Of a stretch of DNA of 64,000 nt, positions 1 through 7,656 are shown piece by piece. The stretch is from Promethearchaeia archaeon. Lineage in GTDB: Archaea; Asgardarchaeota; Lokiarchaeia; Sigyniarchaeales; SOKP01. The notes below the pieces were generated by a model. It worked only from the letters and a program-made list of their open reading frames with translations, was not told the origin of the DNA and did not search any database. The DNA is taken from assembly GCA_029856125.1 (NCBI GenBank), contig JAHQWJ010000080.1, positions 32,001-96,000 on the forward strand. Reading direction: 5' to 3'. The position numbers and the translations under genes were made by a program. Position 1 is the first letter of the stretch. Each line of letters begins with the position of its first letter.

Positions 1-824
1 TCCTCTTTGTTTTTAGGTAATCCAAACATATCCGCATATTTATCAGTTGTATTTAATTCTGCTGACCTTCCTTTTTTTACCGCTGTTATTAGATCGTTGT
101 CCAAGAGATATTTCACATGCTCGTAAGCGCCACTTCCTCTTAATTTAATTACGGTTGACTTTAAAATTGGCTGTTTCAGAGCAATTACAGTAAGTGTTCT
201 TAAATAGCGCTCAGCAATAGCACCACCTTTAGCGAATTTGGAAACTGTTTCTGTAAGTTCCGGTCTTAGCTGCATTTGATATTTTTCTCCAATTTGGGCG
301 ACAATCAATGCGCCTTCACGGTCTAAATAGTCAAAAGCAACAACATTTACAAGTTCTTCTACTTCTTTTTTTGGGATTTCTAATTTAGTTGATAATTCTT
401 CTACATCCAGAGGTCTACCAGCCGCATAAAGAGCGCCCTCTATTAGATTTCTCCGTAGAACATTTAATTGTAATTCTAATTCTTCTTTCGTGAGTTCTTT
501 AGGTATATGAAATTCAACTGTATCATCTCCTATAACTTCAGTCTCTCGTTCGCTTAAGTTTTCTTCTGAGGGGTCGAGACTCGATGATTCTTCCCCCTCA
601 ATATTTAATTCTTCTTCAATAAACTCTTGGAGATCTTCTTCTTCTTTAAAATCTTGTTTAGGAAAATCTTCTATGGTTTCTTTGGTTTCTAATTCGATCT
701 CAATATCTTCTAAATTCCTTTCTTCTTGAGGAATTTCTTCGGGATTAGTCTCATCTAAAGGTTCTACTTCATTCGTTTCGGCTTCGTATTGATTTTCGTG
801 TTCTTTTTCGTTATTTTCGTTCAG
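1..824 (-). CDS. scpB: Segregation/condensation protein ScpB (KITE) with a long acidic N-terminal extension; C-terminus runs off the window
   Basis: Manual translation: ...RRNLIEGALYAAGRPLDVEEL...KYQMQLRPE...LRTLTVIALKQPILKSTVIKLRGSGAYEHVKYLL...TTDKYADMFGL, typical of ScpB; lies downstream of smc-scpA. The only plausible start is CTG at 824, 6 nt after GGTGA (835-831), with in-frame stops just upstream. Confidence 0.93.
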   Translation of the reverse strand, partial: MNENNEKEHENQYEAETNEVEPLDETNPEEIPQEERNLEDIEIELETKETIEDFPKQDFKEEEDLQEFIEEELNIEGEESSSLDPSEENLSERETEVIGDDTVEFHIPKELTKEELELQLNVLRRNLIEGALYAAGRPLDVEELSTKLEIPKKEVEELVNVVAFDYLDREGALIVAQIGEKYQMQLRPELTETVSKFAKGGAIAERYLRTLTVIALKQPILKSTVIKLRGSGAYEHVKYLLDNDLITAVKKGRSAELNTTDKYADMFGLPKNKE

Positions 825-853
825 TTTCTATCACCAAAAATTAGGATTGTAAT

Positions 854-1858
854 TTAACTTTTTAAATTTATTGAGAAATCTTTAAAATCTTCGTCTTGAA
901 ATAGTTCTAACTTATTCCCTGTTGAGAGGAACATTAAAGCTAAAAACATGCGAACAAAAGCGAACTTCTTACCTATGTCGCTTTTTTCTTCGATATTAAT
1001 AATTTCTGCCATGTCATAAAAGGAGGTTTCTTTATCGTCAAGTTTTATTTTAGTTTTTATTCTGTTAAACCAAGCGTTGTGTAACTCTTCTACAGTTTGT
1101 TCCTTCCCGCTAATGTGTTTTAAAAGTTCTTTTGGCAGTTGCGCTTTAGATTTTTTTTGAATTCGCTGTTCTTTTAATTCATCCCGTCTCATTCTTCTCC
1201 TTTTTAGTTTTTCTTTTTTTTGCATTGTCTCAATTATTGCAGATCTCATAGCGTCAAATAATTCGTCTTTAGTGGAGATTAACATTTTAGGCTGAATAGG
1301 TTGTGGTAAAGATTTGGGTATCGATCTACCGTGCCTTGCCCTGAATTGCGCCAATTCTTCCTTTTTCTGAATCTGTTCTTCATCCCGTATTATGCTAGAG
1401 ATTTTGTAGTGATGTAATACTGCCGAAGTTTTAAGCGCGATTCCAGCAATTTTATAATTAATTAAATCTTCATGAAGCATATTATTGAAGAATTTATCAA
1501 CTAATGAAGCTAGATCGTAAAAGGCTACATTTGATTCCTTCGCGACTTCGGGATCTAAAAGGCTTGAAAAAGGCGGTTTCTGCCAGAACTTTAATTCTAA
1601 CTTTTCTTTATGCAATAATGCGGGATCTTCTTCCTCGCCGGCGACTAACTCTTCTTCCAATACTTCTTCATCCATATCATCTTGAGTTCGGTCTACAAAT
1701 TCTGGATGTGAAGCGATCTTTTCTATAAGTTTAATAATTTCATTTTTTTTTGATTTAGACGGTATCTTTATGTTGTTTTTACTTGCAAATTCCCTAAGTT
1801 GCTTTACAGACCATTCTTTGAAGTTGTATTTTTTCTCTTCACTCTCATTTTCTGGAAC
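854..1858 (-). CDS. scpA: Kleisin ScpA, probably with a 61-aa N-terminal extension carrying a HeH/SAP/Rho-N-like domain
   Basis: Lies between smc and scpB; kleisin N motif (DLASLVDKF...NYKIAGIALKTSAVLHHYK) and C-terminal wHTH (VRMFLALMFLSTGNKLELFQDEDFKDF). The frame stays open upstream of ATG 1675 to GTT 1858, 6 nt after AGGTGT. The start position is inferred. Confidence 0.88.
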   Translation of the reverse strand, partial: VPENESEEKKYNFKEWSVKQLREFASKNNIKIPSKSKKNEIIKLIEKIASHPEFVDRTQDDMDEEVLEEELVAGEEEDPALLHKEKLELKFWQKPPFSSLLDPEVAKESNVAFYDLASLVDKFFNNMLHEDLINYKIAGIALKTSAVLHHYKISSIIRDEEQIQKKEELAQFRARHGRSIPKSLPQPIQPKMLISTKDELFDAMRSAIIETMQKKEKLKRRRMRRDELKEQRIQKKSKAQLPKELLKHISGKEQTVEELHNAWFNRIKTKIKLDDKETSFYDMAEIINIEEKSDIGKKFAFVRMFLALMFLSTGNKLELFQDEDFKDFSINLKS

Positions 1859-1884
1859 GATTATACACCTTAAGTTTTTAATTT

Positions 1885-4800
1885 TTAATTTTCTTCAATA
1901 GTAGGAGGCACATCTGGAAGTTCGAGTAACCTTTTCGCTTCTTCTTCTAAATCGACACTAAAAATGTCGGTGATTCCGCTTTGTTGCATGGAAACACCGT
2001 ATATGCGATCTGCGTTAACTATATTCTCTTCACGATGACTTATCACCAAAAATTGCGCTTGTCTGGCAAATTCTTTAATTACCATACTTACTCTATGAAC
2101 ATTGGGACCATCTAAGGCAGCATCTATCTCGTCCATAATATAAAATGGCGCAGGATAAAATTCTTGAACCGCAAAAATAAATGACAAAGCAACGAGTGTT
2201 TTTTCTCCGCCACTCAATATTTCTAAACTGGAAATACGCTTCCCACGGGGTCTAGCTTCGATACTACATCCTCCTTCAAAAGGTTTATCTGGTCTATCGA
2301 GAATCATTTTTGCAGATCCCCCTGGTGAAAGCTTCTGAAATATTCGAGCAAACTCACGATTGATTTCGTGGTAAGCCTTCATGAATGTTCGAGTTTTTTC
2401 CAATTCAATTTTTTCAATAGCATCGAGAATTGCTTTTCTTTCACGTTGTATCGTTTGCCTTCTCATATCTATTTCGTCAAATCTCTCTTTTATAGTATCA
2501 TATTGCGTAATAGCTTTCAAGTTAACTGGTTCCAAAGCTTTTTTCTTGTTGGTAGCTGTAGAAATATCTGATTGTAATCCCGATTCTGAGAGCTCGTCAG
2601 TCACTACGGGCAAAGCACCGTAATCCTTCGATCTCTGATAAAAAGTTTCTATCTGATCTGTAGTAATAATCTTTTTTGATTCAAAATTGTTTAGTTTAGC
2701 ATTTTCCATTGAAAGATCAGAGCGTAGGTCGTTTATTAGTTTCTGATAATTTTTTTGTTTCTGCCAGGATATATCCTTTCCTTGAATCTGTTTATTAATT
2801 TCTTCCTGTTTTACATTCTTTTTGTCTTCTTCTTGTTTTAAATCAGTTTCAATGTTTTCAATATCTTTTACTATTAATTCTATTTGTTTCTCAGTTTCTT
2901 TGATGTCTTGGTTAAGAGAGATTATTTTTTGTTCTCGTTCTTTATTTTTATTTAATTCGTTTAATTTAGCTTGTATTTTTTGAAGATCTTTATTAAATTT
3001 ATTTAATTCTTTTTGAACTTTCTTTTGCGCTTCCAACTCTTTGTTTTTATCTTCTCTTAAAGCATCTATGACTAATTGGATTTCATTGACTTTCTTTTGT
3101 ACCTCATCTACTTGGGTATTAAAACCCTCCATGTCTTGAGCACACTGTTTAATATTTGCGTTAGCTTCCAAGTTTTCCTTAGTTAATTCTTCAATTGAAT
3201 TGATAACCATCATAACATTTTCAAGTGCCCTTAGGTTATCCATTGTACTCTCTAATTTTTTATTTTGGTTACCAATATGAGTTCTTAACTTTTCTGTATT
3301 CTCCCAAAACTTATTTTTTTCTAAAATTTGAGAATCGATTTTTACTGTTAAAGCTTCTTGTTCTAAATTGAGATTTGTAATGTTTTCTTCAGTGTTAATT
3401 ATAATATTTTTCTTATTTTCTATATTTGAATTTAATTCTTGGATATTATTCTCAATATCAATGATTTTTTCATAAAAATTTTGTATTCCCTGCAATTCTT
3501 GAAGTTTTTTATGCAAATCGTCTAATCCTTGCTGTTTTATTTCTATATTTTTCTTGATAGTAGAAACTTTATCCCAGTAGTCCTCTTTGAGTTGTTTTAC
3601 ATTGTTTATTTCTTCATTGAAATTTTCTTTTTGTTTTTCTCCTATAACAGTATTCCTCTGCTTAACCTCAGCTTCAGACTTTTCGATTTTCCCGACCAAT
3701 TCGGTGATTCTTTTATTAACTTCTTCTAATCTCTTATTAGTAACTGATAAATCGTCTGAATCATGCTTTTCTTGAGTATTTATCCGTGTTAAATCTTTTT
3801 CAATTTGGTTTAGATCCAGAGTTTGAGACGCAATATTTTCAGTGATCTCTTCAAGCTGTTTATATTGCTCTTGTGATTTTGACATAGTGAGTTTTCGCAA
3901 TGATAAGTATACATTCTCAAGAATTTCCATTAAATCTTGAACGAAGCTATCAAAAGTTGATGTAGATTGTTGAATTTCTACGTCAGCACTTTCCTTTACA
4001 GAATCAATTAACTGATCTATCGTTGTGTCAACATTCTCAGTAAAAAGAGTTAATGTCTGAAGTATAGACTTAAGAGTTTCAGACATTTCAGCAACCTCTG
4101 ATTTTTGTTCCGCTTCTGCTTCAGCTTCAGAGCTTACATCTTCAACCGTCTTCATAATATCGATAATATCAAGGACAAATTGTTTAAAGTTAACCCCTGA
4201 CGTCTCAATTGCCTCAGCATTAGACTGTTGAATGTTGCTCTTGATAGATTCGACGGAAATATTGATATTCTGAGTGAGCATGTTCAGTATTTGCAGGATT
4301 CCTGTTATATCTTCAGTATTTCTTTCGTATTCTTTTTCTGTATTTTCAATTTTAGCTAATAAATTATTTTTTTCAGTAGTTAGCTCTCCTATTCGTCTTT
4401 GAATATTATCTTTTCTTTTATTAAGCCCTTCTGATTCAGAGCTATTTTTAGTTAAATTTGCGTTTAGAGTTGACGATTTTAATTCTAAATCTTGTTTTTC
4501 CCTCTCAAGATTGGTCGATTCTTTTTTTAATAGATTTAACCTCGTATTAATATTATCAATTTTGGTTCTGTTATCATTAATTTCTGATTCAATAGAATCT
4601 TGTTTCATTAACAATAATTCTAATTCTTGTTCATTTTTTCTATAAATAGAATCTTCATCTTTTAATTGTTGTCGATAACTGTTTAATTCATTAGTTAGAG
4701 TATCTTTTTCCCTTAATAGCTCTTTTAACGCCTCTTCTGTGTCTTTCCCTTTACTTAATTCTTTGATTTTTTCTTCAGTTTTGATTTTATCTACATTCAA

Positions 4801-6354
4801 CTTTTCTATCCTATCGGAGTTCATCTTAATCTCTGTAGTTAGTGACGATAACATAGATTTGAAATCTGCAGACTTTGAATTAAGATTGTTCTTATCTTCT
4901 TGTAGGGTTACGATAATTTTCTCTAGATCTTGTTGATTTTCGTTCTCTTTTGAGATTTTTATATTTAAGTCATTAATTTCTTTTCTTGTTGCTTCAGCCT
5001 CACTCTTTGTATTAGCTATTGCATCTTCAATGCTTTCTGATTCTCCTTTTAATTTGCTAAGATCCAGTTCTAATTTCTGTTTTTTTTCTTCGTTTTTTTT
5101 AATATTCTTTTTCAGAATTTTAATTTGAGCTTTATTCGATGAAATACTTTGCTTTATAACGGAGATTTCTCCATTAAATCCTGTTTTTCCATCGTTTTGT
5201 TCTTTAATTTTTGCGTCAATGTCAGCTTGTTTTTGGTGTTTACTTTCTATTTCTGCTTTTGATGCTTCAATTTGACTTTCTGTATCTGCTACAACTTTCA
5301 TTTCTGATTCAATTAAAGAATCAAATGTTTGGCCTTCATCAAGAACCATCTGCAATTTTTCCAAAGTATTAATTTCTTGAGAAATTTTTTCAATTGACTT
5401 ATTTGCGAGGGTTAAAGACGTTTTATTTGAAGATTGTTGCGTTTTAAGTTGAGTGATTTTTTCAGTGATGATTTCTCTTTCTTTTTCTTTTTCAGTTATG
5501 TTTTTTTGTATATTTTCCATAACTAATGATTCTTGTTTTAAAATATCATCTTGTCTTGTTAATTTTTCTTTTAATTCTTCTAAGATTGTATTAGATTCTT
5601 CAATACTTTTTTCTAGATCATTTTCTTCCTTCCTTAATTTCTCTATCTTTAATGCTATCAATTGAGCGTTGTATAAGTCGATTTGTTCATCTAACTCTTT
5701 CCATGCCAAAGCATCATTCTTTTCTTTTTCTACTTTTTTTAATTGAGAGGAAACTTCTTTGAAAATTGCTTCAAATTGGCCTAGATCTCTTTCAGCCTTT
5801 TCTAGTTCCTTCATAGTTCCATCCTTCATTTCATCGTATTTCTGTAGGCCAATAAGATCTTCTATAAATATTCTGCGTGCTACCGGATTCATGTGAGTTA
5901 ATTCTACGATTTTCCCTTGTAGAACGAATTGATTACTTCCATCAGGATCTACATTTGCAGCTGCAAGAGCATTAAGAATCTGAGTTCTAGTAGATTTTTT
6001 GCCGTTCATTTTATATCCTCCGCCCCCTCCTCGTTGAATTGTTCGAGTAACTTCGAATGTTTCTGTTCCACCTGGGAAAATTTCCTCTGAGTTATCGAAA
6101 TATAATGTGACCGAAGCTCTGTTTGAAGGGTTTTTACCTCGGGATCCCGCAAAAATCAAATCTTCAAGACTCTTAGCTCTCATAGTTTTTTTGCTCAGTC
6201 TACCTAAAGCAAATGTTAAAGCGTCAATAATGTTAGATTTTCCTGCGCCGTTAGGGCCTACTATACAAGTAAATCCGCTCGAAAGCCTAAGAGTAACAGT
6301 TCTGTCACCGAATGATTTAAATCCGGTCATAGAAATTTTTTTGATGTAGGTCAA
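1885..6354 (-). CDS. smc: SMC ATPase, 1489 aa, elongated arms, no canonical hinge
   Basis: GFKSF, Walker A GPNGAGKSN, R-loop MRAKSL, Q-loop VLQG, PVNLKAI, signature LSGGEKT, Walker B/D-loop IMDEIDAALD, H-loop ISHR; first gene of the smc-scpA-scpB operon. Confidence 0.96.
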   Translation of the reverse strand: MTYIKKISMTGFKSFGDRTVTLRLSSGFTCIVGPNGAGKSNIIDALTFALGRLSKKTMRAKSLEDLIFAGSRGKNPSNRASVTLYFDNSEEIFPGGTETFEVTRTIQRGGGGGYKMNGKKSTRTQILNALAAANVDPDGSNQFVLQGKIVELTHMNPVARRIFIEDLIGLQKYDEMKDGTMKELEKAERDLGQFEAIFKEVSSQLKKVEKEKNDALAWKELDEQIDLYNAQLIALKIEKLRKEENDLEKSIEESNTILEELKEKLTRQDDILKQESLVMENIQKNITEKEKEREIITEKITQLKTQQSSNKTSLTLANKSIEKISQEINTLEKLQMVLDEGQTFDSLIESEMKVVADTESQIEASKAEIESKHQKQADIDAKIKEQNDGKTGFNGEISVIKQSISSNKAQIKILKKNIKKNEEKKQKLELDLSKLKGESESIEDAIANTKSEAEATRKEINDLNIKISKENENQQDLEKIIVTLQEDKNNLNSKSADFKSMLSSLTTEIKMNSDRIEKLNVDKIKTEEKIKELSKGKDTEEALKELLREKDTLTNELNSYRQQLKDEDSIYRKNEQELELLLMKQDSIESEINDNRTKIDNINTRLNLLKKESTNLEREKQDLELKSSTLNANLTKNSSESEGLNKRKDNIQRRIGELTTEKNNLLAKIENTEKEYERNTEDITGILQILNMLTQNINISVESIKSNIQQSNAEAIETSGVNFKQFVLDIIDIMKTVEDVSSEAEAEAEQKSEVAEMSETLKSILQTLTLFTENVDTTIDQLIDSVKESADVEIQQSTSTFDSFVQDLMEILENVYLSLRKLTMSKSQEQYKQLEEITENIASQTLDLNQIEKDLTRINTQEKHDSDDLSVTNKRLEEVNKRITELVGKIEKSEAEVKQRNTVIGEKQKENFNEEINNVKQLKEDYWDKVSTIKKNIEIKQQGLDDLHKKLQELQGIQNFYEKIIDIENNIQELNSNIENKKNIIINTEENITNLNLEQEALTVKIDSQILEKNKFWENTEKLRTHIGNQNKKLESTMDNLRALENVMMVINSIEELTKENLEANANIKQCAQDMEGFNTQVDEVQKKVNEIQLVIDALREDKNKELEAQKKVQKELNKFNKDLQKIQAKLNELNKNKEREQKIISLNQDIKETEKQIELIVKDIENIETDLKQEEDKKNVKQEEINKQIQGKDISWQKQKNYQKLINDLRSDLSMENAKLNNFESKKIITTDQIETFYQRSKDYGALPVVTDELSESGLQSDISTATNKKKALEPVNLKAITQYDTIKERFDEIDMRRQTIQRERKAILDAIEKIELEKTRTFMKAYHEINREFARIFQKLSPGGSAKMILDRPDKPFEGGCSIEARPRGKRISSLEILSGGEKTLVALSFIFAVQEFYPAPFYIMDEIDAALDGPNVHRVSMVIKEFARQAQFLVISHREENIVNADRIYGVSMQQSGITDIFSVDLEEEAKRLLELPDVPPTIEEN

Positions 6355-6471: not shown

Positions 6472-7656
6472 TTAGTGTTTGGTGAAAATAGCATCCATGA
6501 TAGGCTTTAGTTGCTTTGGGTTTATAACCATAAAGTAGTAATCGTAATTCAAGACATTGTCGTTAAAGTATCGAAAATTATTTATATCATTTTTTTTTGA
6601 AGCGTTTAATATCCCGATATTGCGTAAATTAACGATTAAATGCTTAAATTCCTCTATATCCTTTGTATAATCTAATGATTCACATGTTACATGATACAAT
6701 TCTCTTAATTCCCCGATAGTTATATAAAGATTTGCTTTTTTTAGAAAATAATTAGATAAATTATCCAGAAAAATCAGGTTTAACAGATCTGATTCTGAGA
6801 TATAGCTTATCATACTAAATTCATCTGTAATTTGAAGCGTGTCAAATTGGCTTTGAAGAATATCATAAATCTCGAACTTTTTTAAAGTCATTTTTTGATT
6901 TAAAACAGGATAAAGCTCTCTCAAAATTTCAATACCTTTTCCTGGAACAGGTACGTGGTGCTCGAAAATTAAATCAGTAATTAAATCTATTAACTCTTTA
7001 TCGATTTCATTGAAGAACGCCAAAGAAATTCTTTGCTTTATAATATCGTTAAGCTCGGAGAATGAAAAGTAGTCTAATTTCTTTTTAAAGTCAAATTCGC
7101 TCAAAATCTCCAGGATTGACGATCTTAATACTTGATTACCAGTAGATATTACGTTAATTTTGTTTTCTTTGCCGTATTTTAAAAATTTTCTAAAAGTCTC
7201 TGGTTGTATGTGTTCAATATTATTAAACACTAGAGTTATATTATGATCTACTTTTCTACATACAAGCTTAAACAAGTTCCATAAATCCAAGATAGAAGAA
7301 TTTAGAAACGAATTATAATCAAAATTGATGTTCTTTTTCCTTCCAACTTCAGCTATTAACGAAACTAATATCTCTTCCACAGTTTTTTCAGCGCAATCAA
7401 TTTGGATTTTTATAAGTTCAGTATTTAAAGTAGAAATATCGTTCAAGACCTTGTTTACAATAACTTTTTTCCCAATTCCTTGTAAACCAGAAAATAATAT
7501 ATTTAGTTGAAATTCATCTAGTATTGAATCTTTAAGAATTGAATAAAGCGATTTTTCTTCTGATTTTCGATGTAATATTTTAGGGGGGATATATGATTGA
7601 TCAAATAACGCTCTTGGACCAACGAATTCACTATTTATCCTTTGTGGAGAAATCAT
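6472..7656 (-). CDS. Orc1/Cdc6-like AAA+ protein with degenerate ATPase motifs
   Basis: N-terminal FDQSYIPPKILHRKSE typical of Orc1/Cdc6; Walker A GLQGIGKK (no T/S), Walker B LVFNNIE (no DE); C-terminal wHTH (ITIGELRELYHVTCESL...LRNIGIL). Confidence 0.8.
   Translation of the reverse strand: MISPQRINSEFVGPRALFDQSYIPPKILHRKSEEKSLYSILKDSILDEFQLNILFSGLQGIGKKVIVNKVLNDISTLNTELIKIQIDCAEKTVEEILVSLIAEVGRKKNINFDYNSFLNSSILDLWNLFKLVCRKVDHNITLVFNNIEHIQPETFRKFLKYGKENKINVISTGNQVLRSSILEILSEFDFKKKLDYFSFSELNDIIKQRISLAFFNEIDKELIDLITDLIFEHHVPVPGKGIEILRELYPVLNQKMTLKKFEIYDILQSQFDTLQITDEFSMISYISESDLLNLIFLDNLSNYFLKKANLYITIGELRELYHVTCESLDYTKDIEEFKHLIVNLRNIGILNASKKNDINNFRYFNDNVLNYDYYFMVINPKQLKPIMDAIFTKH

Follow-up and report, generated by a model that had tools for sequence, protein, structure and literature searches.

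The hinge is treated as universal in SMC-kleisin motors, where both DNA binding and a role as DNA entry gate have been proposed for it, and the SMC-superfamily proteins Rad50 and RecN are already known to be hingeless. Here we describe an smc gene that lies, next to its scpA and scpB partner genes, in a 64,000 nucleotide stretch of a Promethearchaeia archaeon genome (GenBank assembly GCA_029856125.1, contig JAHQWJ010000080.1, positions 32,001 to 96,000 of the forward strand; hereafter the window, in whose numbering all coordinates are given). The long Smc encoded by this gene has canonical ATPase heads and no canonical hinge, and we argue, with moderate confidence, that it belongs to an Smc-ScpA-ScpB complex specific to Lokiarchaeia in which a helical apex replaces the hinge and joins the two arms.

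Among the closest described systems is the canonical Smc-ScpAB complex known from Pyrococcus (5xei and 4i99) and Bacillus subtilis (3zgx and 5xg3), with which the Loki protein shares the ABC head motifs, antiparallel coiled-coil arms with a joint, adjacent ScpA and ScpB, and, in a tree of head sequences, a place among canonical Asgard SMCs. It differs from that system in having no SMC_hinge domain (PF06470), in arms of ~490-580 rather than ~340 residues and in a tip made of a duplicated helical hairpin; it is found alongside a canonical Smc in some genera, while other genera lack the latter. In the engineered B. subtilis Smc(Zh), the zinc hook of Pyrococcus Rad50 takes the place of the hinge and growth is normal (Burmann et al. 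2017, PMC5344682); natural Smc arm lengths have modes of 238, 341 and 515 residues (PMC5344682). The likeness to Smc(Zh) is that the hinge of an Smc-ScpAB has been swapped for an unrelated tip element on a coiled-coil hairpin, the hinge fold itself being dispensable (PMC5344682). The chimera, however, is artificial and has a CxxC hook, whereas the Loki Smc is natural, has no cysteine between residues 500 and 1020 and carries a much larger helical module on longer arms. Rad50 and SbcC also resemble it: their head is of the SMC superfamily, the hairpin at the end of their long antiparallel coil has no globular hinge, and the hook-proximal coils pair in a rod-like way (6zff); unlike them the Loki Smc lacks CxxC, scores only ~80 bits with Rad50 models, and has a kleisin and a kite protein as partners rather than Mre11. 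Finally, a "hinge-less" SMC clade was described in marine Actinobacteria in 2025 (PMC12153180), and it too has SMC-type heads and arms with neither hinge nor zinc hook. That clade is bacterial and of another lineage, and neither a conserved duplicated apex nor extended arms are described for it (PMC12153180); the comparison made here is one of description. In the open-access literature searched we found no description of a hingeless Lokiarchaeal Smc or of its protein identifiers in strain MK-D1.

The original prediction, made from the sequence of the window without database searches, held that positions 3860-4320 encode an amphipathic helical domain in place of the hinge, in an otherwise standard Smc-ScpAB. 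Read on the minus strand, this interval corresponds to residues 679-832, the exact middle of Smc. PF06470 has no match on the whole protein at E<=0.1, on residues 640-880 at E<=5 or on three orthologues. There is likewise no CxxC motif anywhere in Smc nor in the central region (residues 500-1020) of 20 orthologues, a region that holds zero or one cysteine across the orthologues. Proline is absent between residues 170 and 1248, and the conserved glycines within residues 500-1020 are confined to positions 536 and 685, with no conserved glycine motif. AlphaFold2 models of residues 600-920 and of residues 165-1325 are all helical and contain no beta-strand. The predicted absence of both the canonical hinge and the zinc hook was thus borne out; an SMC_hinge match or a hinge fold had been named beforehand as the finding that would speak against it, and neither was found with PF06470, with AlphaFold2 or among the fold matches listed.

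Alignment to a canonical Smc delimits what has been replaced. By BLASTP against the canonical Loki Smc of a sister genus, residues 1-571 of the long Smc align with residues 2-545 of the canonical protein, i.e. up to the entry of its hinge, and residues 1255-1478 align with its residues 974-1196 at 42% identity, while no part of the long Smc aligns to the canonical hinge itself. Therefore a helical hairpin of ~480 residues replaces the hinge and the region adjoining it. With the apex as query, Pfam at E<=5 gave only sub-threshold noise (Apolipoprotein with an E-value of 0.007, and similar) and no MCPsignal match, a profile built from the apex alignment found generic coiled coils only among PDB sequences, and the best look-alike in the ESM Atlas scored 0.81, which is below a meaningful level. 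Fold searches with the apex models recovered long-hairpin proteins only, with no hinge fold among the matches listed, which is not proof of its absence.

The apex that occupies this position is a conserved, internally duplicated module at the tip of the hairpin, spanning residues ~680-830. A gap-free alignment of residues ~680-737 to residues ~757-815, 58 positions long, scores 89 with BLOSUM62, compared with 27.9 +/- 5.4 for shuffled sequences (z 11.4, with 0 of 2000 shuffles reaching 89) and with 38 for the best of 82 arm windows, and distant orthologues carry the repeat as well (z 7.7-9.4). The description of the centre as two similar amphipathic helical units therefore stands. Across 21 orthologues, conservation is 0.67-0.71 at the apex as against 0.50-0.60 in the arms, and the apex is the more hydrophobic, the fraction of charged residues being 0.17-0.29 there and 0.40-0.48 in the arms. 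Each unit has the same pattern, two hydrophobic-dense stretches separated by one whose core is polar and conserved (S, N, Q, D, T). In the 1140 residues between the heads, windows of 14 residues with at least 7 conserved hydrophobic columns start only at residues 680-689, 720-728 and 799-811, whereas by the same measure the arm has a mean of 3.2 +/- 1.0 and a maximum of 6; residues 758-772 are weaker, with 6 of 15 positions conserved as hydrophobic. With a turn at ~750, segment 721-740 lies opposite 758-772 and segment 683-697 lies opposite 798-822. About 2 hydrophobic positions in every 7 suffice for a two-helix coiled coil. The apex segments have ~3.5 in every 7, so their faces would be partly exposed in a lone hairpin, and from this we infer a further interface.

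The predicted structure of this region is that of a long hairpin. The model of residues 600-920 (321 residues, an alignment of 28 sequences) has a mean predicted local distance difference test (pLDDT) score of 84.5, with 74-82 at the apex, and consists of two long helices with a turn at residues ~751-753 (fragment residues 152-153) in the acidic linker. The model of residues 165-1325 (1161 residues, 18 sequences) has a pLDDT of 77, falling to 41-62 at the apex; it is helical throughout, folds back at residues 746-753 (fragment residues 582-589) and has short helix breaks at residues ~335-343, 436-441, 535-539, 909-912, 953-954 and 1243-1256. The breaks of the N-terminal arm, at ~339, ~438 and ~537 (window ~4740-5350), are ~99 residues apart and each falls at a glycine-containing motif, while those of the C-terminal arm are less regular. 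The distance along the arm to the base of the apex module is ~490-510 residues. Each arm is ~150-230 residues longer than that of a canonical Smc, or ~1.5 times its length.

The top fold match of the apex is the cytoplasmic hairpin of a Thermotoga maritima chemoreceptor, 2ch7 (Foldseek E 5e-5; VIA Z 14.6 over 300 residues), followed by the arms of Smc, Smc5/6, MukB and Rad50 (6zff included). The chemoreceptor hairpin functions as a homodimeric four-helix bundle. What it shares with the apex is an antiparallel helical hairpin of ~300 residues, a geometry that we propose for the apex by analogy; at 12-16% identity and with no match to Pfam MCPsignal the two have no sequence relation, and the comparison is not one of membership.

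That the protein is an Smc is plain from its heads, which the original prediction had rightly called canonical. The Walker A, Q-loop, signature, Walker B/D-loop and H-loop motifs can all be read in the translation, split between the N- and C-termini (Table 1), and column conservation in the orthologue alignment is 0.68-0.94 over the N-terminal half of the head (residues 1-170). Pfam returns a single SMC_N match over residues 3-1462 (E 7e-43) plus AAA-type matches at the N-terminus, and the best PDB match of the heads is the crystallised Pyrococcus Smc heads (E 5e-118), with Bacillus Smc and the eukaryotic SMC1-4 next. The protein passes TIGR02168 barely, at 567.6 bits against a cut-off of 567.35, and falls below the cut-off of the archaeal type TIGR02169 (590.6 bits against 729.4), a shortfall that fits with the missing hinge. 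Neither is the sequence an artefact of assembly, since contigs from independent metagenomes agree with it: one of 5934 nt, from another study, covers 1885-6195 and shows 4 differences, one from a third study covers 2944-4869 and shows 2, and both are free of indels. The assembly from which the window comes totals 3.69 Mb over 153 contigs, at a completeness of 99% and a contamination of 6%. That its source is an Asgard archaeon of the Loki type is evident from the Orc1/Cdc6-like gene beside smc and from the sources named for homologues.

To place the long Smc among its relatives we built a tree from head sequences only (45 sequences, IQ-TREE, LG+C20, careful search). The long Smcs form a clade with support of 100/100, nested in the canonical Asgard SMC cluster (100/99); SMCs with divergent hinges make up a third group, far away from it. 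By origin the long Smc is a paralogue of the canonical Smc of archaea. The branching between its clade and the clade of hinge-bearing Smcs of the same order is not settled by this tree. Other identities were rejected by model scores and by the tree alike. The best Rad50 models give 79-83 bits against cut-offs of 700-1087, the ASRP model NF045487 gives 137.6 bits against 300, and the RecN model TIGR00634 gives 37 bits against 408; arcadin-4 and MukB-type identities were ruled out on the same two grounds.

The scpA and scpB partners adjoin smc as had been claimed, the kleisin gene following smc and the ScpB gene following it in turn. The 119-residue part of scpB called as a gene matches Pfam SMC_ScpB at E 7e-22. 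For the scpA product, Pfam SMC_ScpA gives E 0.005, below its cut-off, and a profile of 13 ScpA orthologues compared with the PDB finds the ScpA N-domain 6ivh at E 3e-5 and the C-domains of Pyrococcus ScpA and of Scc1 at E 0.04-0.07. An scpA-like frame comes directly after smc in 15 of 20 related loci, usually with scpB next, and in these loci no other partner gene is conserved beside smc. The locus of the hingeless Smc includes dedicated kleisin and kite genes, whose products would be its partners. What did not hold is the description of the complex as otherwise standard, given the extra length of both arms and the membership of Smc in a lineage-specific paralogue group.

In both partner genes, scpB (1-827) and scpA (upstream part, 1676-1894), the conserved N-terminal region precedes any ATG, GTG or TTG. 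Ahead of the ATG called for scpA, its frame stays open for 73 codons. That of scpB is open over ~300 codons, and a CTG is the second codon after the stop, where an orthologue appears to start. These frames suggest non-canonical start codons or mutations of the starts.

We surveyed 301 Asgard genomes at least 80% complete, that of the window included, for the apex. It is present in 80 of the 91 genomes of the family to which the window belongs and in all genomes (9/9 and 1/1) of two sister families of the same order, for a total of 90 of 101 genomes in the order, as against 1 of 199 elsewhere in the phylum and none in the remaining families. The carriers include the cultured Promethearchaeum syntrophicum MK-D1, whose orthologue has 1493 residues (QEE14997.1, DSAG12_00820), and Ca. 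Harpocratesius repetitus. The length of the long Smc is ~1475-1500 residues across the order, and the hingeless architecture recurs in >90 genomes, closed ones included. Searching 1.84 billion representative sequences with residues 640-880 gave 34 clusters only, with full-length members of 1464-1487 residues, and a word-indexed search gave 168 proteins, nearly all of 1473-1487 residues and none with a precomputed SMC_hinge. The sole copy found outside the order (G173:C70, family f25) sits on an 8.6-kb contig and groups tightly in the head tree with a sequence from the sister family f2; it is likely a case of bin contamination or of recent transfer. In one closed genome of the sister genus g2 (G279:C1:2199309-2200007) the frame around the apex has only 879 residues, compared with ~1485, possibly through a frameshift or stop in the assembly.

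Hinge-bearing SMCs were traced through the same order. Strong PF06470 matches (E 1e-27 or better, in open reading frames of ~1200 residues) occur in 17 of its 101 genomes, none of them in the window's genus (g1) or in g2, and one of these genomes encodes a separate ScpB after the canonical Smc. Among the 32 other genomes of g1 searched, no Smc with a canonical hinge turned up. In 29 of these 32 there is a weak PF06470 match (E 1e-5 to 5e-11), which sits in a separate SMC of 1149-1167 residues with the Walker A sequence GPNWSGK and a divergent SMC_hinge of 38-44 bits. The original prediction had proposed looking for a second smc with a hinge in the genome of the window, and there is one: its first 124 residues lie at the end of contig C122 (18970-19341), are 92% identical to a 1167-residue protein of the same genus that has the divergent SMC_hinge, and follow the same 425-residue gene that precedes it in the same-genus genome. 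A PF06470 search of the window's own assembly gave 0 matches at E<=1; we rejected the reading that this genome has no hinge at all, the result being an effect of the assembly, in which the second SMC is cut after 124 residues by the end of C122.

Judged from gene content, the order had up to three SMC complexes. Two of them, the long hingeless one and the one with the divergent hinge, appear to survive in the window's genus. Because no canonical Smc was found in the 32 other genomes, the long Smc is probably the only condensin-type motor in this genus. The long Smc has been kept under strong constraint across the order; between two families its heads are 75% identical, compared with 63% for the canonical paralogue that these genomes also carry. 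According to a preprint on SMC evolution, entire SMC complexes underwent an additional duplication in some Asgard archaea; a missing hinge is not mentioned there.

In the mechanism that we consider best able to explain these data, the two repeat units would be the two strands of the hairpin, and their wide conserved hydrophobic faces would pack on the corresponding module of another Smc chain, the simplest arrangement being a parallel four-helix bundle with the arms co-aligned. Such a junction would join the arms at the tip, which is the one known indispensable job of the hinge. The resulting Smc-kleisin ring or rod would measure ~85 nm rather than ~50 nm, given ~580 residues per arm at ~0.15 nm each. 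Hinge-like DNA binding by the apex is unlikely since its tip is acidic.

Several points weigh against this mechanism or qualify it. That the apex dimerises we infer from its conservation and its unusually wide hydrophobic faces, and those faces could equally serve a partner protein. A homodimer complex prediction for residues 640-880 scored 0.01, which counts neither for nor against binding. The confidence of AlphaFold2 at the apex is moderate in the shorter model and lower in the longer one, so that the packing of the segments is uncertain and an intramolecular bundle may be formed instead, and the alignments behind the two models (28 and 18 sequences) are shallow. The chemoreceptor match is near the level that any long helical hairpin would reach and can serve as an analogy only. 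Lastly, the loss of the canonical Smc from genus g1 rests on draft genomes, although 29 of the 32 show only the weak match of the other paralogue.

A first alternative to a joined tip is that the apex is an intramolecular cap, whether a hairpin or a folded-back four-helix bundle, in a complex held together only by its ATP-engaged heads and the kleisin, as a rod with free tips that could be single- or double-armed. A plain hairpin satisfies the AlphaFold2 monomer models, the four hydrophobic-dense segments of one chain could bury each other, and the linker at the tip is acidic and variable. We nevertheless think a cap unlikely, if worth taking seriously: a straight hairpin gives each dense segment a single partner segment and leaves part of the wide face exposed, and no conserved glycine or proline breaks the units where a fold-back would be needed. 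To our knowledge, moreover, all characterised SMC-kleisin complexes require a junction at the tip, judging from Smc, MukB and Rad50. In B. subtilis, replacement of the hinge worked only with another dimerisation domain (PMC5344682). A different possibility is that the apex is a docking module for proteins that bear or bind the same module, tethering the tip of the motor, for example to a DNA-binding factor, with or without self-association. It is prompted by the head-less proteins of the MK-D1 family, 925-1077 residues long, that carry the two-unit module twice together with a beta-rich region and a lysine-rich tail, on which there is a weak Pfam match to HC2, which is histone-H1-like. We hold this to be distinctly improbable, however, as head-less proteins are found with the apex query only in family f2 (6 second matches), whereas the apex of Smc is conserved throughout the order, the window's family included, and scpA and scpB are the only partner genes conserved by smc.

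The head-less proteins themselves are encoded at L079:500-3631 (Ca. Harpocratesius repetitus), L080 and L100:981-3746 (P. syntrophicum MK-D1); their first apex copy matches at E 4e-12 and the second at E 0.035, followed by the beta-rich region and a lysine- and threonine-rich tail. Because the module occurs twice in these lysine-tailed proteins, the tip of Smc might also pair with other proteins that bear it, the apex then being an autonomous and transferable association module that closes the arms as well. This is a speculation to which we attach little probability; were it true, the closest cultured relatives of eukaryotes would have a loop-extruding motor whose tip acts as a programmable tether instead of a fixed hinge. 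As for the centre of the protein being a hinge that has diverged beyond recognition, or one lost through mis-assembly, we found nothing in favour of either, and both are effectively refuted. PF06470 fails to match even at E 5 and neither AlphaFold2 model has a strand. The other paralogue, with its divergent hinge, still scores 38-44 bits. The same architecture recurs in >90 genomes, with closed ones among them, and independent contigs agree with the sequence.

Taken together, a whole Asgard order, cultured species included, maintains a hingeless and long-armed Smc-ScpAB, which in many genera is apparently the only condensin-type Smc. The long Loki Smc does in nature what the Smc(zinc hook) chimera does in the laboratory, in that the hinge is replaced. 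Through it one could ask which of the functions of a hinge, namely dimerisation, DNA binding and gate opening, are required, and whether arm length keeps to the discrete modes known from elsewhere. As a bona fide Smc-ScpAB in a cultured Asgard archaeon it should be of interest to SMC specialists, and with up to three distinct SMC complexes carried by genomes of the order it bears on the SMC repertoire of the archaeal ancestor of eukaryotes. Coordinates of the features of the locus are collected in Table 1.

Table 1. Features of the smc-scpA-scpB locus in window coordinates; aa, amino acid residues of Smc unless a protein length is given.
Feature	Coordinates	Strand	Basis and remarks
smc gene, long-armed hingeless Smc paralogue	1885..6354	-	1489-aa open reading frame with TTG start; translation and Pfam SMC_N
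N-terminal half of ATPase head, aa 1-170, Walker A GPNGAGKSN and Q-loop	5845..6354	-	translation; Smc heads of Pyrococcus and Bacillus as PDB matches
N-terminal arm helix, aa 171-678	4321..5844	-	BLASTP to canonical Loki Smc through aa 571, remainder extra arm; AlphaFold2 all helix
Apex unit 1, aa 679-737: hydrophobic-dense 683-697, polar-core segment, hydrophobic-dense 721-740	4144..4320	-	repeat test; hydrophobic density; 21-orthologue alignment
Acidic, poorly conserved linker, aa 738-757, with predicted hairpin turn at aa ~746-753	4084..4143	-	AlphaFold2; length varies among orthologues
Apex unit 2, aa 758-816, direct repeat of unit 1; antiparallel on unit 1 in models	3907..4083	-	repeat test; hydrophobic density; AlphaFold2
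C-terminal arm helix, aa 817-1310, joint near aa 1243-1256	2425..3906	-	AlphaFold2; TIGR02168 aligns aa 1018-1469 to model positions 714-1181
C-terminal half of head, aa 1311-1489: signature LSGGEKTL, Walker B/D-loop FYIMDEIDAALD, H-loop	1885..2424	-	translation; PDB matches
scpA (kleisin)	854..1894	-	called ATG at 1675 (273 aa); frame open to 1894, conserved N-terminus upstream of the ATG
scpB (kite), long acidic N-terminal extension	1..827	-	last ~17 codons beyond the window; Pfam SMC_ScpB

Two further observations concern the surroundings of smc and its possible transcription. A small metatranscriptome (run X20) has one contig over the 3' end of the gene, 1885-2595, with 95-99% likeness and a diverged stretch of 207 nt, because of which we ascribe it to a relative; DNA carry-over is possible and the contig is no proof of expression. 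Elsewhere the gene was not covered by RNA from this run, to which, at its small size, no meaning attaches. Directly upstream of smc, at 6472-7656 on the minus strand, lies an Orc1/Cdc6-like gene, for which TIGR02928 gives 52.8 bits against a cut-off of 181 and all family scores are far below their cut-offs.

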